A DNA stretch of 64,000 nucleotides, taken from NCBI RefSeq assembly GCF_024521635.1, contig NW_026250407.1:1488001-1552000 (forward strand). Reading direction: 5' to 3'. Both the position numbers and the translations under genes were made by a program. Below are positions 3,052 to 62,482 of the stretch, in pieces. The notes beneath the pieces were generated by a model, which did no database searches, was not told the DNA's origin, and worked only from the letters and a program-made list of their open reading frames with translations. The DNA comes from Tricharina praecox (Eukaryota). The first letter of the stretch is position 1. The number at the start of each line of letters is the position of its first letter.

Positions 3052-5089
3052 ATGGAGAAATCGGAGTCGGACTTGGGCTCGTCGTACGCCGTGAGCGAAA
3101 AGGATGCCGAGTCTGCTAGGGAGAGCGCCGCACATCGGGATATTGCGCCTGGTCATCACCGCCGCGACGATGCTTCAGGCTACGACGAGGCCATCGTTAG
3201 AGTCACCAGTACTGAGCTCGACGATCCGGAAAAACTGGAGGCTTCGGCACACCTGGGACTGGGCGCATCGAGGACTGTGTCGACGACTAGGACGACAAAG
3301 GATCTTGCGGCAGTGATTGGTACATCGTTCGAAGTCAAGTGGAGCGAAGGGGATCCAGAAAATCCAATGAACTGGACACTGGCGAAGAGAGGATACATTC
3401 TGGTGGTGGTTTCGCTGCAGACATTGATTGTGTAAGTGGGCACCGAAGACATGGTACTTTTCACCGCTGATGTCCCGTGGCGATGCAGCATCTTCTACTC
3501 GACATCCTACGTATCCGGCGCGCCAGGAATGAGGGCGGAATTTGGGATCACGTCCGACACAACTATGATTCTTGGCATGACGACATATCTTCTCGGCCTT
3601 GCGAGCGGGCCGATGCTTCTGGCACCGCTTTCCGAGCTGTACGGCCGCCGGATCATATATCTCGTCTCACTGTTCCTCTACTTCCTCTTTGTGATTCCCA
3701 GCTGTGTGGCTACAAATTTCCACACCATTTTAATCGTCCGGTTTTTCGGCGCGGTTGCTGGTTCGGTCACAATTGCAAATGCTCCGGGGAGTCTGGGTGA
3801 TATCTTTCCGGAGGAATACCGGCCCCTCGCCTTCAGCGTGTTTTGGTATGTACTCATCCTACTCCATCCTCCATTGTGCCTACTCGTGGTGGAGTGTGCC
3901 GGGGAATGAATATGTCGCTAATCAACCTCTGGTCAAAAAGTTTAGGTACGACAGACAAGATCCTTCTCCAGATTACTCATTACTAAACGATTGTGAACAG
4001 CACCCATGAACGGCCCGGTTCTCGGCCCGATTATCGGCGGCTTCGTCTACCAAAACCTTGGCTGGCGCTGGAACAACTGGCTTGTCCTAATCGCTGCCGG
4101 TTTGTTTGGCCTGATGGGGTTCACCCACCCGGAGACGTATGCACCGGAGCTGCTCCGACGCCGCGCAGCAAAACTCCGCAAGGAGACCGGAGATGAGCGA
4201 TACATGTCGAGATTCTGCTTTAAGGACGGCGAGGGCGATCCCGCACATCTAATCAAGCTGAACCTGAAGCGGCCGGTGACCATGCTCGTCACCGAGCCGA
4301 TGTGCATCTTCTGGGCGCTCTACGTCGGCGCCATCTACGCCGTTCTGTACATGTGTTTCACCGCTGTTCGTACCCCCCACCCATATGTACCTTCCCGATC
4401 GCGGACGACTAACGCCTTGTGTAGTACCCCATAGTCTTCTCGGAGATCCGCGGGTGGGGTCCCGGCATCTCGGGCCTAGCCTTCACGGGAATGGGTCTGG
4501 GCACGATCCTCGCGGTGGTTTCCGAGCCGCTCAGCCGCAAGATCTACAACATGCACAGCATCGACCCGGACACGGGGAAGCGCCCACCGGAGGCGCGGAT
4601 CCTCGTCGTGGCCATCGCCGCAGTCATCATCCCCCTCGCCATGTTCTGGTTCGCGTGGACTTGCGTTCCCGTCAGCATTCACCCTGTCTGGCCTATCCTC
4701 AGCGGCGTACCTTACGGCCTCGGGAATACTTACGTCTTCCTGCACTCAAATAACTATCTCGTCACGAGCTACGATGTATACGCCGCCAGCGCAGTCGCCG
4801 GAAATGCAGTCGTTAGAAGCATCCTGGGCGGTATCATGCCGCTGTTTGCGCCCATCATGTATCGAAAAATGGGCCCGAATTGGTATTGCACTCCCCCTCC
4901 CCCCGGGCTACACTCCACCCATAGGAAGTAATGCTGATGGCGAAAAACAGGGCTGCCACCACCGTGGCCTTCATCGCTGTGGGATTGATCCCCATTCCGT
5001 GGGCCTTCTACAAGTGGGGCAAAACCATCCGGCTAAGAAGTCCGATACTGCAGAAGCTGCAGAGGGAGAGGGAGGAGAGGGGGGAGTAA
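3052..5089 (+). CDS. MFS transporter, drug:H+ antiporter DHA1 family (Tpo/Flu1-like), 5 exons
   Basis: Motifs W..GDPENPMNW, GPMLLAPLSELYGRR, GPVLGPIIGGF, PETYAP, PEARI, YAASAVAGN. Introns at about 3432-3488, 3846-4000, 4366-4424 and 4883-4950. Stop TAA 5087-5089. Confidence 0.92.
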
Positions 5090-5675: not shown

Positions 5676-5842
5676 CGGAGGGTATCCGCCTGCCTTGACT
5701 ACCGGTACCCCGGCACCCTCCCGCCGCCCCGCCGCCCCCGTGGAAATGCCTAGATATCAGCCGCTGTTGATGTAGCTAGCGTAGTGCGGGGCACATCGCT
5801 CTAGTTAGCGGACGCCGGGCGGGAGATGGCGGAACTCTTCCG
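5676..5842. promoter_or_regulatory. Two CGG-N7-CCG putative Zn2Cys6 sites upstream of the GFA gene
   Basis: CGGAGGGTATCCG (5676-5688) and CGGAACTCTTCCG (5830-5842). The same motif recurs in the other cluster promoters. Confidence 0.65.
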
Positions 5843-6055: not shown

Positions 6056-6575
6056 ATGTCCGACGCTACCACCACCGCCGCCACCGCCGCGCCGACAACG
6101 GGCACCTGCCTCTGCGGCGCGATCACGCTCACGATCCCTGCGGCCGCAGTGCCGCTCAAGAGCATGTCATGCTACTGCACCCACTGCGCGAAGAACGCGG
6201 GCGGGCCGTACCAGACGAACGCGATGTTCGCTACGACCGACATCTCCGTTTCCGATCCGCAGGGGCAGTTGCGGACGTACAGCATTTTGGACACGTTCTC
6301 TGGAAAGCCCAAGGAGAAGGCGTTCTGTGGGACCTGTGGCTGCACTTTCTATACCCGCCCTGGACACCATGAGGGGAAGATGACGGTAGTTAAGACGGGG
6401 ATTTTGGATGCTGGGTGAGTAAACCGCGAAGGGTTGTGAGGGATGTGCTGATGCGTCACATAGAGCGATCGCGAGTTTTCAGCCCAAGGTGGAGCTGTAC
6501 GCGCGAGATCGGCCGCAGTTTTGTCAGGCGCTGGAAGGGACGAAGCAGTTTGATACGATGCCGATGACCCATTAG
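6056..6575 (+). CDS. GFA/CENP-V (Mss4-like, DUF636) zinc-binding protein, 2 exons
   Basis: Signature GxCxCG (GTCLCG), CxCxxC (CYCTHC) and FCxxCG (FCGTCG). Intron GTGAGT 6415..TAG 6463. Exon 2 gives AIASFQPKVELYARDRPQF; stop TAG 6573-6575. Confidence 0.9.
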
Positions 6576-6774
6576 GAGGAGCAATCGAGATGGACTAGGA
6601 GGGACTACAAGGAGGGGAGTCTATGTACACAAAGAGGTATCTTCTGATAACCCAAAGAAAAAACGATCAAGCAAAAAGAGAACCCAAGGGTGTTCGCCAA
6701 AAATAAAACCCAATATTTCCCCTGCACCATTGCTGTCGCGGAAGGGAAAATCAAATGCGAGAATTAAAACAAGG

Positions 6775-9707
6775 TTAGGGAATTTGATCTGGAGTATTCC
6801 AGAGTGGATGCTCCATGAACCAATCAAAGTTGACATCGGCGCCCCACACCGCCCCCCGGTTGCTATTGAACAGCAACAGCGGATCATCGGGCGTGTCACC
6901 ACCTCCTTCGCAAGGGATTTCGGCTTCTCCATCGGCTTGTTCTCCGGCGTCTTGCTGACCTGAGACAGAACACGAGTTAGCTGGATGGATGGGATGCAGC
7001 ACGGTTGCATGTAGCTTACCTTCGTCGGAAGCGGAGATAATCTGGTCGTGAAACACTTCCAGTGTAGCCAAGCACCGCTTCGCTGATTCATACCCGTCTT
7101 CCAGGCTTCGAAGGATCGCAATGCACTTCTTCCATGACACCTCGAGGGAATCGTAATCAAGTTCGGTCTCCAGAGCAGGGCAGAGTTTTGCGGCGAGAAG
7201 TACGGTTGCTGCTGTATACAGATCTGCGGTGGACGTGTCAGTGCCATGGTCAGGTAGCAAAGATCTGGTTAGAATACGAACAGAAGATATAGTACCACCA
7301 GGCCGGCACTGCTCCGCTTAGTAGATTGTCGTCAATTAGGCTGATTGCTTCCTGTGCTGCTTCTACACAAGAAACGGAGCACTTCATTGCTAGTGAAGCC
7401 TCGAGCAACGATGTCGGGTGCAGCCGCTTGGATTTCTGGTCGTGATAGGCTTGTGAGTCCTGGACCAGATTGATGAGGATAGGTCGGAACAGCAAAATTC
7501 GGATGTTCAGGTATCTGCATCAAAGTGAGTTTTACAGCACAATGGGTCTGTGGCCGGGAGGTATAATCACCTGGCGTGTAAAACATTTGCTTGCCTAGTT
7601 TGGCAGGAATCCCGAATAATCGGTTCGGCCTCTGGATCCACAAAATGCAGGCGGAGAGCTGCTGGTAGCTCCAGCTGGAAATCAAGGAGCATCCGGTCCA
7701 ACCGGAGGAGTGACTGGTAGTAATCGTCGGGCCGCGGTTTCTCGTTCCGACTACCAGATGTATCATAAAATATTGACAGTATTTCACCGAGTATTTCGTA
7801 CAATTTGAGGGTATGGATGAAGAAGGTTGTCCGAGCATACACGCCCTCCGGTTGTTCACAGTACGCATTATCGTTGGTCAAGTATTCATCGTCAATCGCC
7901 ATAGGCAATGTGACTTGAGAACGGAGCGAAACCATGCTTGGCCGACCAAAAGTCATGCTAACTATACTATCGGAGAATTAGAAGGTTGGAATGAGGTTGT
8001 CTGGATACATGACTCGCCCTACTCACCGGTCGAGAAGAATACATCCATGCCATGCTCTTCTCCAGATCTCCCTCTCCACGTTGTTCTTCCTCTTCGCGCT
8101 GGTTGAGTCCAGATGCAATCCTAGCCCTTGTGCCACGCGGATCGCTAGCCCGGCAACATTCCAACATCGGTTCGGATACTTTGTCGACTGCAAAAACTGA
8201 CCCATGAGGAGCAACGCCTGCACGAGCTGAATAGACCCGCACCCTAGGATGTCGACATGCAGCAAAAGCCTAGATCTTTTGAAGAACACGTCCGCGGATG
8301 AATCACGCCGCGCCGGTGCGATATTTGACGAGAACTGACAGCCGAATGCGAAGACACAATTTAGGATACATCGGAACAACCTTCCCGGAGGCTTGCTTTC
8401 GTACGAACCAAATAGCGCGTCATCGTTCGAACCCGGGAAGGCTGAGTTTGTCCACAGCTGGTTGTAGGTCTGCATAAATGTAGGACGATGAAGATATGGG
8501 TATAGCGAATCGACCCATGTCCAGTAGCACTCAAGCAGGTGGTCGGCGATGCGTCGTGGCGGGAGGATAAAGTCTTCCAAGTCCTCCAGGAATCCATCGT
8601 CGTTCCTAGGTTTTCTTTCCCAGGCCGATTCAAAACCTGGCGCCGGAGTGCAAAAGCTAAGCTCCTCTGGTGACTTGGAACATGTTTTCTTCTTGTCAAC
8701 CGTCTGTTTGATTTGCTTCATGAAAGAGACCGCTGATGAGCTCCCGAAAAAACTCTCGTTCTCGTCTCCATCTACTCCATCTCCCCCGCTTGACGATGTC
8801 GCCCCCATCGCATCAGCTCGAGCTTTAGGTGGGAGACCAGCCGTAACGGAAAACCGTCGTTCCCGAGGTTCTTCAACTGTAACGTCCAGTTCCTTCGAGT
8901 GAGCAGGTGCGAATTCTGCACCTTCTGGTGTGCCACTATACAAGAGATGACTTCCAGGCTGGGGAATCGAAGCGCTAGGGAGGGGGCCAGTGTCCATTCT
9001 GTTCAGACCCATGTCTGCCCCAAGGGTGTAGTTCCGGGGCGGTTGTTGTTGGTTTAGTTGCGGTGGTATTGGATGCGGCATTGTGTCGTAGCGGTGGTAG
9101 CTGAGTGAGTGATTCTCAGTGTCGGTCGTCGCCTGGGGGAAAACGTTACGATTGCTCAAAACCTGCACTTCGTCCCGGACAATGAACGTACCATGTCCCC
9201 ATTATACGCCTCCATGACCGACACGTTCGGCTGCGCATGGCCAGCATTGCCTTCCAAAGACCGTATCCGCGCTTCCAGTTCCTCGATGTAACTACGTAAA
9301 TTCGCACCAGTCAACATTCGAGTTCCGCGTCCCGCCGTCGGATCGCAGACGAAATCAACCTCATTGCCCACATACCTTTGCGACACAGCCGGTCTATTCG
9401 GATCGTTCTGATACACACACTTCTCGGGGCTCCTTCCTTTGCGTGTACACGGGCCGCACGGTTTCGCGCCGTCGCACCTTGATTTCCGCTGGCGGCATTC
9501 GTCGCACGCCGTGGCCACCTTCCTCCGTTTCGGCCGCGGCTCGCTGCTCTGGCTATCGATTCCATCCGTAGTGTGCGACTGGCCGTGGGTTTCGGACGTT
9601 GCGCGTGGGCGTCGCGGATTCGAGCCGCCAGATGAGCCCGTCGTGGACGTGGGCGACGGTACTGTCGCTGGCTGCTGCGGGCCGTGTGCTGGCTCGGTGG
9701 AATTCAT
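6775..9707 (-). CDS. Zn(II)2Cys6 transcription factor with fungal-specific middle homology region, about 7 exons
   Basis: ACDECRQRKSRCDGAKPCGPC(X8)CVY binuclear cluster followed by the YIEELEARIRSLE coiled coil. MHR motifs YPYLHRPTF, GLAIRVAQGLGLH, RRAWHGCILLDR, FGRP. Acidic C-terminus. ATG at 9707. Confidence 0.93.
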
Positions 9708-11070
9708 AGCGAGGGCGTATTTCGACGGTGGTCGTGGTGTTGGTGGTGGTGGTAAGTAACAGGTGGTCGTACGCCGCCACGATGCCTGCACTTTGGTTCG
9801 GTGCAGGGAACATGGTCACGACAAGGCCATTGCAAAGGAAGGGAGGGAGGGACGGAGGAGATCTGGGTTATCTAAGTACTAAGCACGATGAGGTTTGGGG
9901 TGGGACGCTGGGTGGGTGCAGTGATTCGCAGGACTGTCCACTAGCCGGATGTTCGGCTAACCGCAATGACAAACCCCGCAACGCAACGGGCACCTCCAGC
10001 GCGGGAAGGAGGGTTGCAACAAACGGGGCATGTAAGCGAACGCTTGGATCGGAGAGGTCCGACGGCCCCATACGGACCTGCGGCACCAGGGACCGCGCGG
10101 ACTGGCATTCGGTTCGTGATCACTTTCCTTCATCTAGTCACCCCGATCAACTCCAGCATAACCCCGGCTGGGAGAGTCTCGCTTTGCCATGTATGCATCG
10201 GCCTTTAAGGGCCAACTCGGCCCCGCGGATTATTCAGCATATGCCGGCGCAAGTCGCCGACACTAGCAATAGAGTGGTCTCCACAACGTTATGGATCGCC
10301 CCGCGGCTGCTGGGGATCATCCTGGCCTCGGGAGGGAAAAGGAACCCTTGCGTTCGGGAGGCCAGTTGCCATACCATCTGCATACAAAACTGCAATCGAT
10401 CATAAGCTATTGCCGTATGTATGAAGTCACTTAAGAGGTAAATGTCTCAGTTCTGTTTTCCGTGCGCTTACAGATTATTACCCGAGCGGGAAGTAAGACA
10501 AACAGAAATATAGAGTTGTCTTTCGTATCAGAGGCCACGAGCCAGATATAGAAAGCCTACTTCCAAATATGGCAGTGGAGCTACACATCACCTCTTAATT
10601 GAGATACTACGGTAGGACAAATTTATTTTCCCGTTAAGTTTCTCCCGTACCGCATTGCTCAACCCCAACGATTATGAATACGAGCCAATTTCCTGTGGGA
10701 TCACTACATGGTACGCAGCTGCTGAGGTCACTCGGCCATAGTCCATAATTATCAAAGTGTGTTTGGGATTGAAACTATGGTACATAGAAGATGGCCATTT
10801 TGGTATAAAACGGGCCGACATATTTTGCCACCCATTCGTCATAAATTTATAATCGCACATAGTAAAGACCGTTAAGAATGTATATACATCAAGAAAAAAA
10901 GAAAACGTGGCGTCCAATCCCTCATCCCCTCTGCAAAACAGTGCCCTCATCCGTGGACATTACATACTTCCATGAAAAAGAGCCATCGCGAACATCATCA
11001 TCAGCATCATCATCGATCACCCCTCCCCAGCAAACCACCCAAACGAGGGAGAAACCCATGGGTTGTACGC

Positions 11071-12914
11071 CTACGGTGTGAACCTGAAAGCCGGGTGACC
11101 ATGGCCGAGACCAGCCACCTCCTCCTCGGTCTTTCCCTCGACGCGATGATCCCTGCGTCCCATATCACGTTGCTTATTCTCCCAGCGCAGGTAGAGTGTA
11201 GTAGTACAGCAAACAGCGAGAAGGATGACAGCAGCGGAAAGATTGATGATGTGGCCGGTCCTGTACGCAGGCGCCTCAGAGGGCAGGTAAGTCCAGGTGG
11301 CGACGAGACCTCCAGTGCTGCCCAAGCAGACGGCGAAGGCGCTGGCGATGGCGCGCACGGTGGGGCCGGCGGAGTTGTCGACTGTCCAGGCGATTATCAC
11401 GGGACTGGATGTGAACGCCCCCATTGTGACGAGGAACAGCGCGAAGTATTTGACCGCAATCATGTCGATGGTCAGGAGCAGGGCGAAGCCGATGACAATC
11501 GTGGGGCCCGACACAAGGCACAGGATCAGGCCGCGGGTCTTCAGGCGGTCCGAGAGGATGGCGCAGCAGACACAGACGATCGAACCGAGGAGGTAGGGGG
11601 GTACAGTCATGAGCTGGGACCGGATCGAGGTGAAGCCCATAGCCTTCAACAGGGACGGCTGTGGCGGAATGTTAGCTGGTGACCGCCGGGGGGCTATTCA
11701 GGGTGACAAACCATGAAGAGAGCAACCGAGTTCATGCAAAGCAGACCGCAGAAAAGTCCAACGGACATCAACCAGGTGTTGATGTTGAGGATCGATTTTT
11801 TGAAGTGGAACTTCTGCATCTTCTCCTTGGAACCGGTCAGAGTCTCGAGGTAGATCCTCCGCACGGCGAGCTGACGCTCTTCATCGGTCAAGAATTTGGC
11901 GGATCCTGGTGAGTCGGGGAGGACGAGGTAGCAGATGGCCGCGGCGACGATCGTGAGCAACCCCTCGAAGAAGAAAATATTACGCCACGAATGGACCATT
12001 CCCCACTGGGGAATTTGCGAGAAACCAGTAGCAAGAAGACCTGTTGCGGAGTAGAATTTAGCCAGGTAAATGGAGAAGTTCGAATCGGTTGAAGTTATGT
12101 ACCTCCGAATCCTCCAGCTACACTTGCAACGGATGCATAGATACCGACTCTAGTGACCAGCTCATGACGACGGTAGCTGCGTGAGTGTCAGAAAATGATA
12201 CCTAGAGCCCTTACGGGAGGAGGGAGCTCACAAGGTTGAAAGAGTGTAGGTGATTCCAGGCATGATTCCAGCTTCCGCGATTCCGAGGACCACTCTGGCA
12301 ACAACGAGGCCAGTGTGCGAGGTGGTGAAGCTGATGCAAAGGGTGATGAGGCCAAATCCGAAGGTGATCAAGGACAGCCAGATCTTTGGACCGAATTTCT
12401 TGCAAAGGACATTGGCCGGTCTGCAAACTGTCAGCATTGCCGTCCGTCACCAATTAGATGGATGGATTGGATGCTTACACTTCAAACAGGACGTAAGTAA
12501 TGAAGAAACCGGTGAGAGCAACATTGAAGTCGAATCCTTCAAGCTTCAGGTCCTACGGGGGCACGCATGTCAGCCTACTAACTCTTGATGACTGACACCC
12601 AGTGGATGAATGGTTATTACCTCTTCCATGCCCATGATTTTGGCGTTTCCCATGTTGCTCCTGGTAATTCATCAGCTACCGCCAGCCTGGATTGAGCTCA
12701 CCGGGAAGACGACTCACCGGTCGATGAAGGCCATCAAGTAGATTAGGGTCACGCATGGCAAGATCCACTTATCGAACTTCCTCCGGAGCTTCGCCTCCAA
12801 TTCGTGGTCCAGGGAGGCAAGCTCAGCCTGGAGGTCTTGAGCGTCCAGCGATCGGAGCTTTGTGTTCATGCCATTTTCGATGTGCATGGTTTCGTTTTGT
12901 TCTTTTCCCTCCAT
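11071..12914 (-). CDS. MFS permease, anion:cation symporter (Dal5/Tna1-like) family, about 7 exons
   Basis: KLRRKFDKWILP..YLMAFIDRSNMGNAKI, LGIAEAGIMPG, YRRHEL, WRNIFFFEGLLT, LPDSPGSAKFLTDEER, QLMTVPPY, and C-terminal WENKQRD..LGHGHPAFRFTP. Confidence 0.93.
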
Positions 12915-13272
12915 GATTGCTGAGGCGTTGGACACTGGAAATATTTGGTCTCGGGAAGCTCTTATATGCCATCCCAATCCCAATGCCGAGGCGGCTACTG
13001 CAAGCTGGACCAAAGGTACCCATCACACTCTCTCTCCCCAGGTGAGTTATCCAGGGCAATTACCCCCGGCTATCTCCCGCAAGCTGGGGCCGCAGCGAGG
13101 CGTCCTGGTAAGCCAGTTGACATTTGAATCCCAAGGCTCAAACCCGATAATCCCAAAGCATCTGTTGAACTCGCCCGCTTAATTGAGACCTGGGGAAACA
13201 GGGGGGTGGGGGCTGGGTTAACCTGTTTACGGCTTGGCAACGCCTTTTTTCTTCCCAACTCATAGGCGGGTG

Positions 13273-13318
13273 CGGAGCACTTCCGGGGCACTTAGCAATC
13301 TACCACGGAGCGGACCCG
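13273..13318. promoter_or_regulatory. Two CGG-N7-CCG putative Zn2Cys6 sites upstream of the permease
   Basis: CGGAGCACTTCCG (13273-13285) and CGGAGCGGACCCG (13306-13318), about 360-400 bp before the ATG at 12914. Confidence 0.65.
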
Positions 13319-15207
13319 TGGAAAGGATTTTTTCTTGTCCTCCATTGACCCGCATGTGTGCTGAAGCGCGTCTATCCAATCGAATCGCTTGAGTAATCTT
13401 CAAAGTTCAGCCTTTGGGGCTGCGGTACCGAGTGAAGCATGATGTCGAACTGCGGGCAAAGCCTATGATAGAAGGTGAGACGGTGTCTATCCCATAGCTC
13501 TGGGTCAGGCAAATCTGATTGTGCAGCCTCCCCCGCGTTGGTTTCAGAACCCTCGGCTCTTTCTACCACTTGCTGCTTGCCGCATAAGCGGAAGCGACCT
13601 CGAACTTCCGCGTTGTATCATTGCCGCGGTCATAACTGCCTTCCGCCTCGAGCTCAATCATCAATGCAGATTCCCGGCGGGCCCAAATTGCCAAGCTGTT
13701 GGAAAAGCGCAACAAAGCCCCCGAATTCCAATAGAATGTTCTCAGCCACCTCGCCATCAGCAAAAGCAAATGTATGTTGCTTGCCCAGTCGAGCACGCGA
13801 GCTCGGCCATCTGGGCGAGGAGGCAGCCGGAGCAGTTCCGGACTCGTGGTCTGGATGCACCCAGCAAATGGACTAGTTTCCGCCTCCTCCTCCTCCAAGT
13901 CTGCATCTGCGTCACCGTATCACCGTATCACCAGTATGATGTATCCTCGTACGCACACTCCCAACTCATAATTCGTGGAACAAATCGGTTCCAGGTGAGA
14001 GGATCTGCCTTGCCTTGCATACGTGTAACTGTAGATATGTATGTTCTCCACAGAATATCCATCTACACTTCCAAGCATCGCCGGAAAGTAGGTATCACAC
14101 GAAGATTACCACCTCCAAAGGTCGAATACCAAATTATTCCCAGCGCAGCTTCAGACAACACTCTAATTTACCCCATCCCAGGCTACGCGTGTTCTACATA
14201 CAGGTATGTACATACCCGAGTCTTTACTCGTTACTCGTATTATCATACCTGCAAACCGTGCACACCGTGCACTGGGATCCGACACCGGTAGTTAGTTGGA
14301 CTATGCTACCCCGGCCAACCCCGCGCCCCCCACAAAAATGCGGGGAAGACTAGCGCCGAACCCCGGATGAGCCTCCCCCCGTCTCATCTACCATTCCAGT
14401 CATGAGTGGCCCGCCACGGAAGAAATATTGAAAATCCGGACAACTAAATCGGTTCTGCATTGTGGAGTATGGTCAGCTCCTGTGTACGGTAGGTAGTACG
14501 GTAGTGTATGTACGCTCGGTGTCTGCACTGCTCTCGATTCGATTCCGTATATGCACCCTCCACAGGAGTTCGGAGCAATGAGGAGGCGAGGAGGATGAAT
14601 GGGCTTTGCGGTGCATTGTCCGGTCGAAATGTGATTTAATTGGCGTGTGACCAGAGAAATTATGAAATTCGATTAGTTAGCAAGGCAATCCTAAGCTCAC
14701 TCCGTAAGAACTCCACATGAGTAACCAGTCGGTTTTCCGTAGCCAGGCAAATTGCATTCAAGACGTCGAGCTGTAAGGTTTTGATATCTATTACAACTAA
14801 CTACGGTCACAGAACCGTGAACACACGGCTTCCCGTCCGCTCAGCCCTAGTTAAGCATGGTATCGCCAGGTTAATACTGCAGTGGGTGACCATGCGGGAA
14901 TCCCTGGTACCGTAATTTTTGTTTTGCCTTTGCATCGAAGAGCAAAAGTTTGATTTTTGATACTCCATCTGTCTATAAAGAAGGCGGAACGATTTCTTTC
15001 CTTTGAGTTTCAGAGAGAAAAGTATTTTCATGCATCTGTCCATCGATATAAACATAGAAACCGTTTTACGGAATATAGACACACTCCCGTAAATGATCAG
15101 GAGTTCATGAAATTGCTGAAATATCCACAAAGAAGCAAAGCAGCCCGAAATTCAAAGCCATATCTACATCCACACACGCCAGTGGTCCAACCCGGCTAAC
15201 CCCACCA

Positions 15208-16803
15208 TCAAAACTTCAGAATCAAGTCGAGTTGTGTGTTGGCCTGTGCAAAGTTACTCCGTCAGCGATCCTCGATCCGAGGAAGGGGAAGAGAGGGGGA
15301 GGAAGAGAGGGTGGGGGCATACATGAGCGATAGCATCGTGACCAAACAGCCACGGCTGAAACTCAGGATCCGACCATCGGTTGGGGTTTGACTTGACCAG
15401 CTTCTGCTGCTTAAGTTGCGCGGCAACCCTATCCTCATCTGTGGCACCCATCTCCATCTTCATATCGGCATCGCGGGCCAGCTGCTCCGGGCCATCGGGC
15501 ATGTGCCAGATGTCACCGTTCTCCATCGAGCCCTTTTGGATCTTTTCGCAGCGCGGCTTCCGGATCGTCTGGAAGGCGGCAAGAACCGCGGGGAGGTCAC
15601 TGCTATCCCGTGCGCGCGAAATGCATTCCGCCAATGACGCACCGTCTTCGATTGCTTGTCCCGCGCCCTGTGGGGTGTTAGAAGCTGACTGGGCATCGTG
15701 GGGCTGGGGATGGGGGTGGGGGTGCAAACCTGAGCGAGGTAGGGCACCATAGCGTGTGCGGCATCTCCGATCAATACCACTCTTCCGGATTTGCTCACCC
15801 ACCGCGGCAGGACGGGGAGGTCCGCCAGCGTCCACTTAAGACAATACTCGACCTTCTCGAGAACCTTGCAGATAACCGGATCCCATCCTTTGTACTGTGC
15901 CTTCATCTCGTCGAGGTTCCCCGGCTCGTTCCACTTTCCTACTGCCGCCTTGCCCGGATGCGACATGACGAGATTGTACAGCTTACCCTCCTGGATGGGG
16001 TAGGCCATGATGTGCCGGCGGTAACCAATCCAGCAGTTGGAGGAGGCTTCATCCATCAGGTGCCGGACTTCGGGGTCGGCGCGCATGATCTCTCCGGGGA
16101 CGGTGGCACGGTAGGCGCAGTTGGTGGTGGTCCGGGGTTCGACGGTTTCCTCGGTGACGACGGCGCACTCGCGGACGCGGGAGCGGATACCTATCTACGG
16201 AGTTATTACAGCCCCAGAATATAAAGGAAGAATTGGATGTTCGCTGACCATCGGCTCCGATAATTACGTCTGCTTTTAGGACGGTTCCATCGTGGAGCGT
16301 CACAGTGACATTTTCCTGATCGACGTCCTGGACGTAGGCTCCGAGTGTTATTGTGGCTCCCTCGGCGAGAGCAGCATCGTGGAGCATCCGCTGGTAGTCA
16401 GCTCGGTGAATGAGCCAGTAGCTGTACCTCCCGTCAGCCAAACAACTTTCGAAGACCCAGCTGCACGATCTACTCACGGATATCCATAAGTCTTCGTCAT
16501 CTTAGGATCCAGTGGCGTAACGCCGATCACATCACCATCCTGGTACCGCCTCATGTTGATGTTCTTCGGCCACACAACTTTCTTGAGCAGCTGCTCCTTC
16601 AACCCCCAGCTCTGCAGCAGCCGGCTGCTATTCGGCGGGATCTGAATACCAGCTCCAACCTCCTTGAGCTCCGAGGCGCCCTCAAGCACGTGGACGGCAT
16701 GGCCTTTCTTCCGCAGGGCGACGGCAGTCGCAAGACCTCCGAGGCCAGCACCGACGATGATGATGCTGAAAGGAGCTTTTTTGGCGGCGTCACTGCTAGG
16801 CAT
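15208..16803 (-). CDS. Group A FAD-dependent aromatic hydroxylase (salicylate hydroxylase / 3-hydroxybenzoate 6-hydroxylase-like), 5 exons
   Basis: IIIVGAGLGGL Rossmann motif, EVGAGIQIPPNS, IHRADY, IIGADG, VVLIGDAAHAMVPYLAQGAGQAIEDG. Last exon ANTQLDLILKF*, stop at 15208-15210. Confidence 0.93.
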
Positions 16804-17433
16804 TTTGGCTGTGATTGATCGTACGGGGAAAGGAAAGGATGTCTTGTTTCTGAGAGCTGTTAGTGACGACGAAGGAAAGGATGCGTGTATTTAAGCCATC
16901 ACATAATAGCTTCGACATCTCGCAGGAGACCGAAGTTCCTGTCGCCTGCAGTGGCAGAACTCCGCTGCCTGTCCCAGAGCGCCGGAGCACTCCCGTATCA
17001 AGTCTGTGAGCCTGGTTGGCGAGATGTCAAGACAGTCCAGCGTTTCTTAGTCGCGTGTTCTGCATAGCGGGATTCCGGAATTGGGATGTTCAGATGGGCT
17101 GTCAACTTCAATGATCACGCTTTGATGGATAGTGCGAAACTGTGGGGCGCATAGCGGTGCTGGGGATAGTGGGGTAGGGATATACATAGCTCGGATCGTT
17201 CCGCTTCGTAGCTGGAGGCCGGCCTAACCGTGTAGCTCCCCACAAGCTGGCGGAAACAACGCCATGGAGAAACCTCCAGACAAGAAGGATGTGATAATAA
17301 ATATACTCACGCCGACTCAAGCTTTACTTTCTTTTTTCACTTTGCTTACTCTTTTCCCCCCAAGTAACTCCGAACCTGGTCGATCAGCTCTCCTCACTCG
17401 CATAGCAAACCTCACTGACTCGAATATTTCACC
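16804..17433. promoter_or_regulatory. Divergent promoter of the hydroxylase and dioxygenase genes
   Basis: 630 bp between head-to-head ATGs. Contains CGGAGCACTCCCG (16983-16995), near-match TGGCAGAACTCCG (16952-16964), CGGATCGTTCCG (17192-17203), several SYGGRG (CreA-like) hexamers, and TATA-like AT runs near 16889 and 17296. Confidence 0.65.
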
Positions 17434-18581
17434 ATGACCAACGTCGACGCCGAAAAGATCGCAAAGGTATGTCTCGGGCCGTCTCGAGACATTCGAGTGG
17501 TTACTAACTAGCACTTAATAGTGCGAGAAATTCATCACCGAGACACTCCCACCGCACAATGTCTCCCCGCTTTGGACTGTGATGGACGCGGTAGTCCCAC
17601 CGTTTCCAAACCCGAAGGCGGTCCCGCATCTTTGGAGTTACAAAGAGCTGCGACCAATCCTCCTCGAAGCTGGCGAGTTGGTAGCAGCAGAGGAAGCCGA
17701 ACGGCGAGTGTTGATGCTCATCAACCCCGTGTTGAGTGTGTTCCCACGCCCTCATACTCATATAGTATTGCTAACCACTCCCCCCCCCCCAGAGGCGCCG
17801 AATACAACCGACACCCTCTATGCGGGGTTGCAGCTAATCCTGCCCGGCGAGACGGCACCCGCACACCGGCACGTAGCATTCGCACTGCGGTTTATCATCG
17901 AGGGAGAGCGAGGGTTTACAGCGATCGACGGAAAGAAGATCAATATGGAGCGCGGCGATGTGATTTTGACGCCGAAGTGGACGTATCACGATCACGGACA
18001 CGACGGGACCGGTCCGATGATCTGGCTGGATGGGCTTGATCTCCCCGTGTATCAGTTCTTGCCCGTCAATTTTGCCCAGGGATACTCGGAGTCGCGGTAT
18101 CCGAGCGAGTATGCTCCCCTTATTCTCTCCCCCCTCGAAAGAGAGAACTAGCTGATGAATGAATGAAAGGCCGGTCGAAACCTCGCCCTCGAAATACCCC
18201 TGGGCCCCTGTCCAGGCCGCTCTCGACTCGCAGTCCGGCCCATACGCGAAATTTACCTACCAAGGTGGCTTCGCCGGCGGACACGTGTCGCAGATCATCG
18301 GAGCCCACGCAGAGCGCGTCGATGCGGGAACACAGTCGCCGCCCCGCCAGGAATCCAGCTCGTTCGTGTTCCATGTTTACCAAGGCAATGGATACACTCT
18401 GGTCGGCGAAGGAGAGCAGCAGAAGAAGCTGGTGTGGACGCAGTCGGATGTCTTCGCGGTGCCTCATTGGAGGAAGATCGTGCATGTCGTCGGTGAGGGA
18501 GAGACGGCGTATTTGTTTAGTTTTTCGGATACCCCGATGTTGAGTAATTTGGGGAGCTGGAGGGAAAATAAGTTTGAGTAG
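17434..18581 (+). CDS. Gentisate 1,2-dioxygenase-like bicupin ring-cleaving dioxygenase, 4 exons
   Basis: PLW..PFPNPKAVPHLWSY, EEAERRVLMLINP, TTDTLYAGLQLILPGETAPAHRH, GDVILTPKWTYHDHGH, WLDGLDLP, DVFAVPHW, YLFSFSDTP. The HxH...H iron ligands are present. Introns at about 17467-17521, 17736-17792 and 18109-18169. Confidence 0.93.
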
Positions 18582-19193
18582 GGTGCTTTTGGATAGTCTT
18601 TTAGGGTTTTTTTTGTATTTGGATTTGGGGTCTTGTTTTGATAACTATTCAACGAGAAATATGATTGAAGTTTAATTCAAGCTGTGCTGTGTGCTGCGGA
18701 TACTGATCTCACGATGTATTTTCCTCTGTTTTTGGCCAAGAATAGTACTGAGTGGCCAACATCCGTGTACCATGCCTCTGGATGAGACACAATGACGCGA
18801 ATTACCTTAATGCCGAAGAGTTCCACTCCACTCCACTTACTCTCGAACCTCTCAAACTACAAGTCCCATAGTGATCACCTCATCGCCAGCCAGTTTCCAG
18901 AGAAACCCATTCCATCCGTCACGTCATCATAGCTACCGTAGTATCCGCAAGCTAAACCCTCACTGCCGGCCTGCGTCCCGCGCCCACAGAAACGCGCTAT
19001 CTCTTCCTCCGTCGATGGATGAATCGCAATCCAGGATGATCCTCCGCGAACGATTCTCCGCGAAACTCCGCGAAAAAAAAACGTGGGGCAAGCTCATCGC
19101 TCCCCGCATGATCATAATTCCCCGCACTGCGCACCGCGCGCCGGATAGTTAGCCTTATCCTGGTCCCTGCATTCCGCACCACCCCCCCTGTCA

Positions 19194-19231
19194 CGGAACC
19201 ATTCCGCTGTCGCTTGGCCGGAGATGAGCCG
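19194..19231. promoter_or_regulatory. Two CGG-N7-CCG putative Zn2Cys6 sites upstream of the FAH-family gene
   Basis: CGGAACCATTCCG (19194-19206) and CGGAGATGAGCCG (19219-19231). Confidence 0.65.
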
Positions 19232-19474
19232 AGCGAGCGCGGGTCCGGTGCAGGGGGGGAGGGAGGGGCCACTCGGGCCGATGAGGTCGGTCATGGAGGG
19301 GGAGGGAGTTGATGTTGAAGGATTGGAGACGGGCGAAGGAAGACATAAAAGCTTCCCGCTTCCAGTTTCAAACATGGATCCATAGAACAATCGCCCACCA
19401 TTCTCTCCCTCACCTCCAAGCTCTTACACATCTCTTCCCGCCGTCCCCTCCGTCTCACCACCGCAACACGCACA

Positions 19475-20411
19475 ATGGTAACCTGGACGCGCCTCATCCG
19501 CTTCGTCAGCGCCACCGACGGAAAGACCTACAACGGAGAGCCCATCGTCAACGGCGCTGAGGTCGACGTAGCGAAGCTTTTCAAAGCTGGCTCGCTCCAG
19601 GCACGCATCATCACGGGCGACGATATATTTTCCGATGATGCGAAGATCGCCGACGAGGCTGTTGATGTGAAGGAACTCCTCGGCCCCCTCACCGAGGAGC
19701 AGGTTCCGATCATCAGATGTGTCGGATTGAACTACATGAAGCACAGTGAGTCCTCCGCCTGCCGCCAGAAGAGAGAACCTAGCCTAACAATGAACAGTCC
19801 AGGAAGCCGGCCGCACACCACCGCCGTACCCCAGCATCTTCATCAAGCCGTCGACGTCCGTCGGCGGCTGGGGCGAAGAAATTCCAATCCCGAAGCTCGC
19901 ACAGGACGACCAATGCGACTACGAAGGCGAGTTGACCATCGTGATCGGCAAAGACGGCAAAAACATCCCCGAGGACCGCGTGCATGAGTACATCGCCGGC
20001 TATGTCACCAGCAACGACGTGTCGGCGCGCAAGTGGCAGCGCGAGAAGGCGTATGCCGGCGGCGTCCCGCAGTTCTGCTTCTCCAAGGGATTCGATAAAT
20101 ACGCGCCCCTCGGGCCCGCTATCGTCGCCGGCCCTACCGTCGGCGACGCCGGTGAACTCCGCTTGACTACCAAGGTCAATGGTGAACTCAGGCAGGATAC
20201 CAATACCAACGATCTCATCTTCAACATCCCGCGGATTATTGCGTTCATCTCGCAGGGAACCACACTGAAGAAGGGCAGTCTGATCATGACTGGTACCCCG
20301 AGTGGTGTGGGAATGGGCATGAGCCCGCCGCAGTATCTGAAGGATGGGGACGTTGTCGAGATCGAGATTGAGAAGCTGGGCACTTTGTATAATACCATCA
20401 AGTTCGAGTAG
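19475..20411 (+). CDS. Fumarylacetoacetate hydrolase family protein (fumarylpyruvate/acylpyruvate hydrolase-like), 2 exons
   Basis: WTRLIRF, IRCVGLNYMKH, PSIFIKP, DYEGELTIVIGK, NDVSARKWQ, FSKGFDKYAPLGP, IMTGTPSGVG. Intron at about 19746-19797. Confidence 0.93.
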
Positions 20412-21059: not shown

Positions 21060-21905
21060 GAGCAGTGAGGCACCAAGAAGTGAATGAGGCTTGCAGGAGT
21101 GAATGAGTATCGGAAGATTGATTGAGCCTCGAAGGAGTGAATGACGCTCGAAGGAGTGATTGAGGCTCGCAAGACTGAGTGACGCTCGGAGGAGTGAATG
21201 AGTCTCGAAGGAGTGAGAATGAGTGAATGAGCCTCGGAAGATTGAATGGGACTCGTAGGAGTGAGTGACACTCGGAGGAGTGAATGAGACTCGCAAGAGT
21301 GAATGAAGCTCGACAGAGCGAATGGAGTGGATGAGTCTCGGAAGAGTGAATGAGCCTCGCAGGTATGAATGAGTCTCAAAGAAGTGAATGAGCCTCGAAG
21401 AAGTGAATGAGACTCGCAAGAGTGAGAAAGAGTGATTGAGTCTCAAAGGAGTGAATGAGAATGAATGGGTCTCGGAAGAGTGAATGAGCCTCGATGAAGT
21501 GAATGAAGCTTGCAGGTGTGAGAAGGAGTGATTGAGGCTCGAAAGGGTGAATGAAGCTCGGAGGAGTGAATGAGACCCGACAGACTGAATGGAGTAAATG
21601 AGTCTTGAAGAAGTGAATGAGTCTTGGAAGAGTGAGTGAGCCTCGGAGGAGTGAATGAGTCTTGCGAGACTGAATGAAGCTCGGGGTGAGTGGGAAGAGG
21701 TGAACGAAGCTCGAAAGAGTGAATGAGTCTCGAAGGTGTGAAAGAGGCTCGAAGGGTTAATGAGTCTCGATGAAGTGAATGAGCCTCGCAGGACTGAATG
21801 AGTCTCGAAGAAGCGAGTGAGGATGAATGAAGCTCGAAGGAGTGATTGAGGGTCGGAGGAGTGAATGAAGCTCGGAGGAGTGAATGAAGCTCGGAGAAGT
21901 GAATA
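21060..21905. repeat. Degenerate 19-bp minisatellite (about 40-45 units), consensus GAGTGAATGAGYCTCGAAG
   Basis: Consecutive units such as gagtgaatgacgctcgaag / gagtgattgaggctcgcaa / gactgagtgacgctcggag / gagtgaatgagtctcgaag, with occasional 8-10 bp partial units. Confidence 0.9.
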
Positions 21906-58161: not shown

Positions 58162-61100
58162 ATGCTACTCAAGAGTCCAGCTCTGCTGGCAATGGCCTTT
58201 TTGGCTGTTGCCGACGGCTTCCCTCGGTATGTCCCACTTCCATCTACTATTTTATTCTTCAGCCCTATTCAGAGTAGTGGTCTCTTGCCACCCCCTCGTA
58301 CAATATTTTTTAGCTTCGTCCTTACTGTTTTCGATTCCCATTCGCATCATTTTTCATGATGCATACTCTGCTTGGCCAGTGACCGCACTACTGTCTAATA
58401 CGCTGCTGTCTTCATTTTTTTGCACTCTTGTCATCGTATCCTTTACCGAGACTGTGCTGATATTTTTATTCAGGATTAGGCCCGGCGGTGCAGGCTTTCC
58501 TAAGGTCACCACTACCGTCACCGAGACTTTCACGTCGGTTTACGTCGTAACTTGTGCTCCGACTCTTGGTGGCTACTGGGACTTCAAGCTTCCAGGCGTC
58601 AAGCCCGCGAAGAGAGACGTCAAAGACGACGATGATCCCATCTCTTGGCCTCGGTGAGTTTTTACTTGACTACTTGAGTTGAAAGCAACAATCACTTACG
58701 AGTGATAATGTAGTACTCTTACGGTCACCAAGACGAAATCCACGACGATCACCGAGTCCCTCTCTCGGAGTTGCCCTATCACGGATGGACCTACCGAGAC
58801 GCCGACTCCCACGTTGACTCCGTCCGACACCGTTGAGCCCTCCGAGACTGCTACTCCCTCCGAGACCGCGACCCCCTCCGAGACTGCTACTCCCTCCGAG
58901 ACGGTTGAGCCTTCCGCGACTGCTACTCCCTCCGAGACTGCTACTCCCTCCGAGACTGCTACTCCCTCCGAGACCGCGACCCCCTCCGAGACGGTTGAGC
59001 CTTCCGAGACTGCTACTCCCTCCGAGACTGCTACTCCCTCCGAGACGGTTGAGCCTTCCGAGACTGCTACTCCCTCCGAGACTGCTACTCCCTCCGAGAC
59101 TGCTACTCCCTCCGAGACCGCGACCCCCTCCGAGACGGTTGAGCCTTCCGAGACTGCTACTCCCTCCGAGACTGCTACTCCCTCCGAGACTGTTGAGCCT
59201 TCCGCGACTGCTACTCCCTCCGAGACTGCGACCCCTTCCGAGACGGTTGAGCCTTCCGCGACTGTGACCCCCTCCGAGACGATTGAGCCTTCCGAGACTG
59301 CTACTCCCTCCGAGACCGCGACCCCCTCCGAGACTGTTGAGCCTTCCGAGACTGCTACTCCCTCTGAGACTGTTGAGCCTTCCGAGACTGCTACTCCCTC
59401 CGAGACTGTTGAGCCTTCCGCGACTGCTACTCCCTCCGAGACGGTTGAGCCTTCCGCGACTGCGACCCCCTCCGAGACTGCTACTCCCTCCGAGACGGTT
59501 GAGCCTTCCGCGACTGCGACCCCCTCCGAGACTGCTACTCCCTCCGAGACTGCTACTCCCTCCGAGACTGCGACCCCTTCCGAGACGGTTGAGCCTTCCG
59601 CGACTGTGACCCCCTCCGAGACGGTTGAGCCTTCCGCGACTGCTACTCCCTCCGAGACTGTTGAGCCTTCCGAGACTGCTACTCCCTCCGAGACTGTTGA
59701 GCCTTCCGCGACTGCTACTCCTTCCGAGACGGTTGAGCCTTCCGAGACTGCTACTCCCTCCGAGACGGTTGAGCCTTCCGAGACTGCTACTCCCTCCGCG
59801 ACTGTGACCCCCTCCGAGACGATTGAGCCTTCCGAGACGGCTACTCCCTCCGAGACCGCGACCCCCTCCGAGACTGTTGAGCCTTCCGAGACTGCTACTC
59901 CCTCTGAGACTGTTGAGCCTTCCGAGACTGCTACTCCCTCCGAGACTGTTGAGCCTTCCGAGACTGCTACTCCCTCCGAGACTGTTGAGCCTTCCGAGAC
60001 TGCTACTCCCTCCAAGACTGTTGAGCCTTCCGCGACTGTGACCCCCTCCGAGACGATTGAGCCTTCCGCGACTGCTACTCCCTCCGAGACTGCGACCCCC
60101 TCCGAGACTGCTACTCCCTCCGAGACTGCGACCCCCTCCGAGACTGTTGAGCCTTCCGAGACTGCGACCCCCTCCGAGACTGCTACTCCCTCCGAGACTG
60201 CGACCCCCTCCGAGACGGTTGAGCCTTCCGCGACTGCTACTCCCTCCGAGACTGTTGAGCCTTCCGAGACTGCTACTCCCTCCGAGACTGTTGAGCCTTC
60301 CGAGACTGCTACTCCCTCCGAGACGGTTGAGCCTTCCGAGACTGCTACTCCCTCCGAGACGGTTGAGCCTTCCGAGACTGCGACCCCCTCCGAGACGGTT
60401 GAGCCTTCCGCGACTGTGACCCCCTCCGAGACGATTGAGCCTTCCGCGACTGCTACTCCCTCCGAGACTGCGACCCCCTCCGAGACTGTTGAGCCTTCCG
60501 CGACTGCAACTCCCTCCGAGACTGCTACTCCCTCCGAGACCGCGACCCCCTCCGAGACTGCGACCCCTTCCGAGACGGTTGAGCCTTCCGCGACTGTGGC
60601 CCCCTCCGAGACGGTTGAGCCTTCCGCGACTGCTACTCCCTCCGAGACTGTTGAGCCTTCCGAGACTGCTACTCCCTCCGAGACTGCTACTCCCTCCGAG
60701 ACGGTTGAGCCTTCCGAGACTGCGACCCCCTCCGAGACGGTTGAGCCTTCCGCGACTGTGACCCCCTCCGAGACGATTGAGCCTTCCGCGACTGCTACTC
60801 CCTCCGAGACTGCGACCCCCTCCGAGACTGTTGAGCCTTCCGCGACTGCAACTCCCTCCGAGACTGCTACTCCCTCTGAGACTGCTACTCCCTCTGAGAC
60901 TGCGACCCCTTCCGAGACGGTTGAGCCTTCCGCGACTGTGAGTCCCTCCGAGACTGTTGAGCCTTCCGCGACTGCTACTCCCTCCGAGACTGCGACCCCC
61001 TCCGAGACGGTTGAGCCTTCCGCGACTGCTACTCCCTCCGAGACTGCGACCCCCTCCGAGACGGTTGAGCCTTCCGCGACTGCTACTCCCTCCGAGACTG

Positions 61101-62482
61101 TTGAGCCTTCCGAGACTGCTACTCCCTCCGAGACGGTTGAGCCTTCCGAGACTGCTACTCCCTCCGAGACTGCGACCCCCTCCGAGACGGTTGAGCCTTC
61201 CGCGACCGCGACCCCCTCCGAGACTGTTGAGCCTTCCGAGACTGCTACTCCCTCCGAGACTGCTACTCCCTCCGAGACTGCGACCCCCTCCGAGACTGTT
61301 GAGCCTTCCGCGACTGCTACTCCCTCCGAGACTGCTACTCCCTCCGAGACTGCTACTCCCTCCGAGACTGTTGAGCCTTCCGCGACTGCTACTCTCTCAG
61401 AGACTGTTGAGCCTTCCGTGACTGCTACTCCCTCCGACACGGTTGAGCTTTCCGCGACTGCGACCCCCTCCGAGACTGTTATGCCTTCCGCGACTGCGTC
61501 CCCCTCCGCGACTGCTACTCCCTCCGAGACGGTTCAGCCTTCTGAGACCGCAACCCCATCCGAGACTGCGACCCCCTCCGAGACCTCTACTCCTTCTGAA
61601 ACTTCGTCTGAAACTGAAGGACCTTCTGTGACCCCTTCTCCCACAGCTACACAATCCGTCATTTCCACCCTCACGGACATTCCCACTTCCACAGAAAATG
61701 TTTCTTCGACTGACACGCCGTCTTCCACGGAGACTGGTATCCCCACAGAGACTCCTTCTCCAGAGTGCCCGTTTGGATACAAGCCTGATGTTCTGATTGT
61801 AAGTTCTCGCCCACCTTGCAGCGATGATGTGTTATTGACTTGTTTAGTTCGATGACTTCGCCACCACCGAGGAGCCAGTGATTTCTCCCCCCACCCCGTT
61901 CGAGTACAAGAACTTCACCTTCGACGACGGATGGTTGGTTTCCAGCTGCTATCGCTCTAACACATGGCTAATGACTTTACTCGCAGGCAACTCCTAAACT
62001 GCAACCAGTTGGACTACTATCTGGACCAGACTTGCAGCCAGGATACTATCGAGGGTGCTCAGTATCTCTCTCTTCATTCTCGCATCAGCAGCAACAAGCC
62101 AACTTTCCGTCGCATCACGTTTGACATCGAGGGAGACACCACTTCATTTGTTCTCAAGTCGTTCAAGGTTTCCACCAAGCCTATCGGCAGTATCTCCAAC
62201 AACGACTATGCTGGCATTGTCTACTGCGCCTGGACCGTCGAGGACCAGTACTACGTTGGATATCCGAGCGTCTGCGGTGACATCAATCTCAGCGGCCCTC
62301 AACCGTTCCAGCAACTGGTGGAACTCAATTGGAGCAATGTCGCATACGTCGCTTTTGCCGGTGTTCAGAACTACAAGAAGCCTCCGACCTACAAGGAAGT
62401 TGCGAGCGCCTCCAAGGGTGCTAAGCCCGTCGAGTTCCAGATTGACGACATTCGTGTTTGCGTCCCGGATGATGATGTTTAG
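58162..62482 (+). CDS. Large secreted mucin-like Ser/Thr/Pro/Glu-rich repeat protein with a C-terminal globular domain, 5 exons
   Basis: Signal peptide MLLKSPALLAMAFLAVADG. Introns at about 58227-58478, 58654-58713, 61799-61847 and 61934-61987 join the frames consistently. About 920 aa of hexapeptide repeats, then a Cys-containing domain of about 200 aa (FDD..PFEYKNFTF..W..IDDIRVC). No GPI signal or TM helix is visible. Confidence 0.85.
58820..61590 (+). repeat. Coding minisatellite with an 18-bp unit (about 150 copies) encoding PSETAT/PSETVE/PSATAT/PSATVT/PSETIE
   Basis: Units such as CCCTCCGAGACTGCTACT, CCCTCCGAGACGGTTGAG and CCTTCCGCGACTGCTACT. The frame is never broken. Confidence 0.97.

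Follow-up and report, generated by a model that had tools for sequence, protein, structure and literature searches.

Does a filamentous ascomycete carry a complete gentisate catabolic cluster comparable to that of the yeast Candida parapsilosis? The question is raised by six genes at positions 6056-20411 of a 64,000-nucleotide stretch of the Tricharina praecox genome (contig NW_026250407.1), referred to below as the window. A sequence-only reading of this DNA had proposed that the genes form a self-regulated cluster for the breakdown of a hydroxy-aromatic acid by the gentisate route. Considering the six gene classes and their linkage in other genomes, a self-regulated gentisate-type catabolic cluster is still the best reading of the locus. 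We put at about three in four the probability that the cluster is functional and works as proposed below, has been inherited vertically, and represents the complete type of fungal gentisate cluster, with a GFA gene.

The six gene classes are present in the order and orientation named for them, as determined by six-frame translation and Pfam searches, and all six spliced models, with exons built from splice signals, are free of internal stops. The first gene encodes a GFA/CENP-V zinc protein of 156 residues (6056-6575, plus strand; one intron, exons 6056-6414 and 6464-6575; PF04828, E = 8e-21). Convergent to it is the gene of a Zn(II)2Cys6/Fungal_trans transcription factor containing Zn_clus and Fungal_trans domains (6775-9707, minus strand; 851 residues, six introns), the putative cluster activator with a Gtf1-like role. 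The major facilitator superfamily (MFS) transporter of ACS (2.A.1.14) type (11071-12914, minus strand; 496 residues, six introns) is a putative aromatic-acid importer; MFS_1 is found in two of its three exon frames tested, each singly below the cut-off. The flavoprotein aromatic hydroxylase (15208-16803, minus strand; 446 residues, four coding introns; FAD_binding_3) is a putative 3-hydroxybenzoate 6-hydroxylase. As the sequence-only reading had stated, it lies head-to-head with the bicupin gentisate 1,2-dioxygenase (17434-18581, plus strand; 324 residues, three introns; Cupin_2), their divergent start codons being 630 bp apart. The FAH-family hydrolase (19475-20411, plus strand; 294 residues, one intron; FAA_hydrolase PF01557, E = 8e-63) is a putative fumarylpyruvate hydrolase. 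Among protein genes the six are consecutive, as described; a 5S rRNA gene unrelated to the pathway (14799-14918, plus strand; RF00001, 89 bits) intervenes between the transporter and the hydroxylase. The 5S rRNA family is dispersed, with 22 other matches in the genome, three of which are spaced 8451 bp on contig C77. The six-gene set is intact and of the complete, GFA-containing type.

The modelled lengths of the hydroxylase (446 residues) and the GFA protein (156 residues) are those of the matching T. praecox database proteins. One hydroxylase exon is 100% identical to the annotated 446-residue T. praecox protein; a 156-residue T. praecox protein three accessions before it falls into one cluster with the GFA exon. 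In two public runs, contigs join exons across 13 of the 21 coding introns of the models, counted over the 15 of 21 joints that are listed. The listed joints cover every intron of the transcription factor (6/6), hydroxylase (4/4), GFA (1/1) and FAH (1/1) genes, one of six in the transporter and none of three in the dioxygenase. The runs are presumed to be RNA and are possibly the source of the annotation itself; the depths of their contigs are unfit for ranking genes, and a gap over 17541-18107 of the dioxygenase is evidence neither way. The run contigs also delineate a 53-nucleotide intron in the 5' untranslated region of the hydroxylase (16850-16902). One of them covers 6413-9376, including the GFA gene and the convergent transcription factor gene; it shows no single transcript, and suggests that the 3' ends of the two genes overlap.

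The best model of the dioxygenase is TIGR02272 (E = 5e-63, under the bacterial cut-off), and its alignment contains the HxH and DHGH metal motifs. All seven PDB matches of the Wilcoxina dioxygenase orthologue are gentisate- or salicylate-type dioxygenases. The dioxygenase has one match in the 38.4-Mb T. praecox genome, which, together with the recurrence of the linkage in other genomes, indicates a grouping beyond chance. The FAH hydrolase has two more distant paralogues elsewhere in the genome, with identities of 46% and 35%. In the GFA protein, seven zinc-type cysteines are invariant over 40 aligned relatives, and the fold of its predicted model (pLDDT 95) matches 8ajq (PA2722) and Gfa 1x6m. 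The best of 88 NCBIfam models for the hydroxylase is that of 3-hydroxybenzoate 6-monooxygenase (NF006021, 260.6 bits).

Gene adjacency, looked for in other genomes and read there from the spacing of accession numbers, is seen in Wilcoxina, Pyronema, Mucorales and yeasts. In Wilcoxina, the GFA gene (KAF8252460) and the dioxygenase gene (KAF8252464) are four accessions apart, as they are in T. praecox, a comparison that covers these two end genes. The dioxygenase and hydroxylase have consecutive accessions in all three Pyronema records, in Fennellomyces, and in Scheffersomyces xylosifermentans; in Sugiyamaella they are five accessions apart. Three Mucor species have FAH, GFA, dioxygenase and hydroxylase genes within 6-7 accessions (FAMeDB supplementary rows included). 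A metagenome scan with the hydroxylase alignment returned 80 loci, 78 of them distant (about 26-42% identity) and two fungal-like (L002 and L019), whose short length does not allow synteny or promoters to be compared. Contig L002 carries relatives of the hydroxylase (60%), the transcription factor (42%) and the FAH hydrolase (47%) together, in an order different from that in T. praecox. Relatives of the GFA protein and the dioxygenase lie on metagenome contigs that are both 11,685 bp long, presumably the same contig.

The nearest named homologues of the dioxygenase are from Pyronema and Wilcoxina (70% identity), that of the hydroxylase is from Pyronema (81% over the exon), and those of the GFA protein are from Trichophaea (64%) and Ascodesmis (55%). 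Since all of these belong to the Pezizales, the relationships indicate that the cluster is inherited vertically within the order. The sequence-only reading had allowed ancestry, transfer or convergent assembly as the reason for the likeness to the yeast cluster; a recent transfer into T. praecox is not indicated. One match, P0141, carries the name Penicillium nalgiovense but groups at 90% with proteins of Debaryomyces. Given this clustering, we regard it as probable contamination of the P. nalgiovense-labelled assembly and left it uncounted as a filamentous match.

A spacer scan of the 6155 bp of intergenic DNA in the cluster identified five perfect copies of the palindrome CGGA-N5-TCCG. Two are located 380 and 226 bp upstream of the GFA gene (5676-5688 and 5830-5842), two about 360 and 910 bp upstream of the MFS gene (13273-13285 and 13828-13840), and one 281 bp upstream of the FAH gene (19194-19206). 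Shuffled sequences contain 0.11 sites on average, and none of 2000 shuffles reaches five; none of 300 does so even if the highest count among 104 related palindromes is taken. The genome rate of 933 sites per 38.4 Mb corresponds to 0.15 sites expected in the cluster intergenic DNA, and the whole window contains eight sites against 1.67 expected. The promoter shared by the hydroxylase and dioxygenase includes a copy with one mismatch (16983-16995, one base off the 13273 site), which is weaker and outside the statistic, and an N4-spaced perfect palindrome at 17192. The promoter of the transcription factor is devoid of N5 sites and has an N4 copy only; the yeast motif is likewise missing before its transcription factor gene. 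The palindrome is a candidate binding site of the cluster transcription factor, and we consider this assignment probable.

We propose a working scheme in which the substrate, each reaction, the regulation and the co-induction are carried over from studies of C. parapsilosis. The ACS-type MFS protein would import the hydroxybenzoate anion. The FAD- and NAD(P)H-dependent hydroxylase would hydroxylate 3-hydroxybenzoate para to its hydroxyl group, yielding gentisate, the ring of which would be opened to maleylpyruvate by the Fe(II) cupin dioxygenase. The GFA zinc protein, together with glutathione, may aid the cis-trans change of maleylpyruvate to fumarylpyruvate, and the FAH enzyme would split the latter into fumarate and pyruvate. 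A dimer of the Zn2Cys6 factor, bound to inverted CGGA half-sites 5 bp apart, would switch the other genes on when the substrate is present.

Several observations weigh against this scheme. The hydroxylase, at 260.6 bits, fails the curated cut-off of 459 for NF006021, a value set on bacterial proteins. Its best PDB matches are the fungal decarboxylating hydroxylases 8x38 and 8gsm, together with the unnamed 8r2t. The GFA-less cluster of Aspergillus terreus did not serve growth on gentisate, as reported in PMC7842363. In Ascodesmis, the nearest GFA gene is 728 accessions away from the dioxygenase gene. The N5 motif was identified post hoc; it has no perfect copy in the divergent promoter of the hydroxylase and dioxygenase, where a site matters most, and it is not found in the short promoter stretches of the homologous contigs L002 and L019. 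The yeast motif GGA-N7-TCC has no sites in the cluster intergenic DNA, and 12 in the window against 25 expected.

The PDB matches speak for the alternative that the hydroxylase is a decarboxylating 1-hydroxylase of the Mnx1/VhyA/PhyA type, supplying a route through hydroquinone or methoxyhydroquinone. The gentisate dioxygenase and FAH steps require that the carboxyl group of the substrate is retained, which argues against such an entry enzyme, as does the presence of other hydroxylase paralogues, about 38-40% identical, elsewhere in the T. praecox genome. The monooxygenase of the Scedosporium cluster has been placed in the decarboxylating clade (PMC8283699), whereas the methoxyhydroquinone dioxygenase of Aspergillus niger is a homologue of homogentisate dioxygenase and not a gentisate-type cupin (PMC8336404). 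We regard a decarboxylating hydroxylase at this locus as very improbable, and a vanillate/methoxyhydroquinone reading of the cluster was rejected on the basis of PMC12388069 and PMC8336404. A hydroxylase and FAH pair on contig C94 was rejected as a second cluster because unrelated genes lie in between.

The named yeast proteins among the 120 hydroxylase matches listed include those from Scheffersomyces stipitis, Spathaspora passalidarum, Debaryomyces fabryi, Kuraishia capsulata and Candida theae. These species are reported to have the complete gentisate route (PMC5144973, PMC9046093), and we take the matches as indirect evidence that the hydroxylase belongs, putatively, to the Mnx2 group. The list of 120 contains no match from Candida albicans, C. 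tropicalis or C. orthopsilosis. The hydroxylase is 55-59% identical to its yeast homologues and 61-64% identical to five of the six Mucorales proteins aligned, the one from Hesseltinella having 53% identity. The substrates are most likely 3-hydroxybenzoate-type aromatic acids degraded via gentisate. It is also conceivable that the same chemistry serves another entry substrate, either salicylate or alkyl- or otherwise substituted 3-hydroxybenzoates, such as cresol-derived compounds in charred matter. The in-cluster transporter and Hbt1, the carrier with proven 3-hydroxybenzoate transport, belong to different families, relaxed specificity is possible for fungal gentisate dioxygenases (PMC3914699), and related fungal clusters with unclear roles are known. 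Such an entry substrate is nevertheless improbable, as the hydroxylase groups by sequence with enzymes of yeasts that use 3-hydroxybenzoate, and the GFA-containing composition is that of the tested yeast cluster.

The GFA protein is a putative glutathione-dependent maleylpyruvate isomerase. Even in yeast, this role is a published hypothesis derived from co-induction and clustering (PMC8929692, PMC13094099), and FAMeDB names GFA-domain proteins as putative isomerase (PMC13094099). The core of the cluster could instead consist of the transcription factor, hydroxylase, dioxygenase and FAH genes, with GFA, and perhaps the MFS gene, as bystanders; the FAH enzyme would then hydrolyse maleylpyruvate directly or after spontaneous isomerisation. 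The hypothetical basis of the isomerase role in the cited papers leaves room for this, as do the seven GFA-family matches at six places in the T. praecox genome, the unlinked gene of Ascodesmis, and the low identity, 34%, with the single GFA protein found under a Mucorales name. In addition, FAMeDB gives an orthologue of the C. parapsilosis GFA in one of 50 Ascomycota proteomes. We nonetheless doubt the bystander role, since four of the five perfect motif sites lie upstream of GFA or the MFS gene, two in each case, the position of GFA is kept in Wilcoxina, the yeast and Mucor clusters also carry GFA-family genes, and the GFA and dioxygenase relatives in the metagenome presumably share a contig.

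The palindromic sites could be bound by another regulator or occur by chance, the cluster transcription factor using a different site. This would fit the imperfect copy in the hydroxylase/dioxygenase promoter, the 933 copies genome-wide, the lack of the motif in L002 and L019, and the N5 spacer with flanking C/G, which differs from the Gtf1 site of C. parapsilosis, GGA-N7-TCC (PMC8929692). However, the enrichment holds after the correction for 104 patterns, and inverted CGG triplets are the usual type of Zn2Cys6 site (PMC8929692); we thus consider the involvement of another regulator or chance to be rather unlikely, and retain CGGA-N5-TCCG as the candidate site of the cluster factor. Repeats under the motif had been suspected because contigs end loosely at 5835, 6072 and 13896, but genome searches found none, and the sites lie outside repeats. 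The run contigs at these positions run on into 255 letters absent from the window, and two of the ends have a short sequence in common with the window near 5790-5810. A strain difference, a chimeric contig or a distant splice may account for these ends. About 25 copies of one exact 13-mer form of the motif occur genome-wide, often near contig ends, and probably belong to a repeat. A wider regulon was rejected: the two refined-motif sites near the hydroxylase paralogue on contig C1 are in the 3' end of a gene and in a coding frame, and 10 of 200 shuffles reach two.

TIGR00893 (ACS, 2.A.1.14) is the best model for three of the four exon pieces of the in-cluster transporter, and HpaX is second for two, with all pieces below cut-off. 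The 3-hydroxybenzoate carrier HBT1 is of the DHA1-like/AAHS type (PMC5566891). The in-cluster transporter is therefore classified from its sequence as ACS-type and not of the Hbt1 type, which suggests that it was replaced or recruited separately. The claim that the locus has the same six classes as C. parapsilosis holds for the classes themselves and fails for the equivalence of the transporters. A DHA1-type MFS gene to the left of GFA (3052-5089, end approximate, plus strand; best matches TIGR00880/TIGR00710) belongs to the same broad family as HBT1. No CGGA-N5-TCCG site is found upstream of it, and one is inside its coding region. The neighbour could be a seventh cluster member or an unrelated efflux pump.

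The C. parapsilosis cluster (MNX2, HBT1, GDX1, FPH1, GFA1, GTF1; PMC8929692, PMC5144973, PMC5566891) shares with that of T. praecox the six functional classes, including the GFA-domain gene and the Zn2Cys6 factor, and a motif of inverted GGA half-sites that is present upstream of pathway genes and missing upstream of the transcription factor gene. The yeast genes, by locus number, are in the order in which they are named above, which differs from that in T. praecox. The T. praecox cluster is intron-rich and, at about 0.2 Mb from the end of its contig, not in a subtelomeric position, unlike that of C. parapsilosis. In the Mucorales cluster, described in PMC5144973 and in the Lichtheimia entries of FAMeDB (PMC13094099), the hydroxylase gene adjoins the dioxygenase gene, with GFA and FAH genes close, as in T. 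praecox. The functions of the Mucorales genes are known from clustering alone according to these sources, and PMC5144973 proposes that Mucorales obtained the cluster from ascomycetes by horizontal transfer, whereas the nearest homologues of the T. praecox genes are in its own order.

According to PMC8929692, the cluster is conserved in Saccharomycotina, Pezizomycotina and Mucoromycota, and 23 GC clusters were reported from three Pezizomycotina classes (Greene et al. 2014, PMC3914699), so a cluster in a filamentous ascomycete is unsurprising. In aspergilli, complete clusters are told apart from "gentisate-like" ones (PMC7842363). The GC clusters, exemplified by Aspergillus fumigatus Afu4g01480-01550 (PMC3914699), are of the "gentisate-like" type of PMC7842363 and PMC13094099 and by class share with T. 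praecox a core made up of the hydroxylase, gentisate dioxygenase, FAH and C6 factor genes. They are described without an isomerase candidate and often with stilbene dioxygenase and aldehyde dehydrogenase genes, whereas T. praecox carries GFA. Both of the latter genes are absent between 6056 and 20411, and Pfam detects no stilbene dioxygenase in the 26 frames scanned at positions 1-27,500. The hosts reported for GC clusters in these sources are Dothideomycetes, Eurotiomycetes and Sordariomycetes (and Oidiodendron), not Pezizomycetes. The gentisic acid cluster of Scedosporium contains six genes, among them those of MFS, dioxygenase, monooxygenase, FAH and Zn2Cys6 proteins, and is induced on gentisate and lignin; it has a P450 gene instead of GFA (PMC8283699). 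The cluster type is thus already known, and what is new is the Pezizomycetes as host class, the ACS-type transporter and, in the promoters, a candidate signal for the cluster's own regulator. In the literature searched, mostly at the level of listings, we found no description of the cluster in Pezizomycetes or of the N5 motif; Martins 2019, Holesova 2011 and the EvolClust paper, known here through citations, may already include Pezizomycetes.

The cluster is flanked on the right by a degenerate 19-bp satellite of about 45 copies (21066-21904). Beyond it, at 22357-57269, are housekeeping genes encoding a BING4/UTP7-like WD40 protein, a Rab-GAP TBC protein, a large HECT ligase, PRPP synthetase, ribosomal S9/S16 and an RCC1-repeat protein. 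An open frame of about 1050 residues at 58709-61852 is composed of about 150 copies of an 18-bp repeat, encoding six residues rich in Ser/Thr/Pro/Glu, and likely specifies a cell-surface mucin-like protein. Degraded transposon-like fragments, judged by eye, occupy positions 100-1650 and include an internal direct repeat near 390-660. The end of contig C1 (L109 2138-9400, L110 179-9644) carries genes of a phenol hydroxylase, an FAD monooxygenase, an inositol monophosphatase-family protein, a Zn2Cys6 factor and a sugar-porter MFS protein, likely another aromatic/quinate-type group.

Pairwise identities were compared with respect to the origin of the Mucorales cluster; their margins are small and rate-dependent, and the direction of transfer is not readable from them. 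Identities of the Zychaea hydroxylase are 63-64% with three Pezizomycete proteins, 56-61% with ten yeast proteins and 53-60% with twelve proteins of other Pezizomycotina. The corresponding ranges are 60-62%, 57-61% and 51-61% for the Mucor ambiguus hydroxylase, and 60%, 59-62% and 48-57% for the Fennellomyces dioxygenase. The Mucorales hydroxylases are thus slightly closer to those of Tricharina and Pyronema (60-64%) than to those of yeasts (56-61%), and the dioxygenases tie; such margins justify only the testing of a Pezizomycete-like donor.

T. praecox is a Pezizomycete and is treated as pyrophilous in PMC12773724. Pyronema and Tricharina both carry gentisate cluster genes, the orthologues of Pyronema domesticum including KAI5786898/9, and P. 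domesticum was studied by RNA-seq on charcoal in PMC8579045. The word "gentisate" does not occur in the main text of these two papers on aromatic metabolism of post-fire fungi (PMC8579045, PMC12773724). We speculate, with little confidence, that Pezizomycetes keep the ancestral GFA-containing cluster, that a Pezizomycete-like lineage and not a yeast ancestor was the donor to Mucorales, that the regulator reads a re-spaced CGGA-N5-TCCG site, and that the route represents an overlooked use of pyrogenic hydroxybenzoates by post-fire cup fungi. The value of the cluster for post-fire fungal ecology is modest, and it changes no textbook. It offers a second, distant system for testing the hypothesis that GFA proteins act as isomerases, and a concrete candidate binding site for a gentisate regulator of a filamentous fungus. 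Its presence extends a known cluster to the early-branching Pezizomycetes and thereby bears on how yeasts and Mucorales came to share it.

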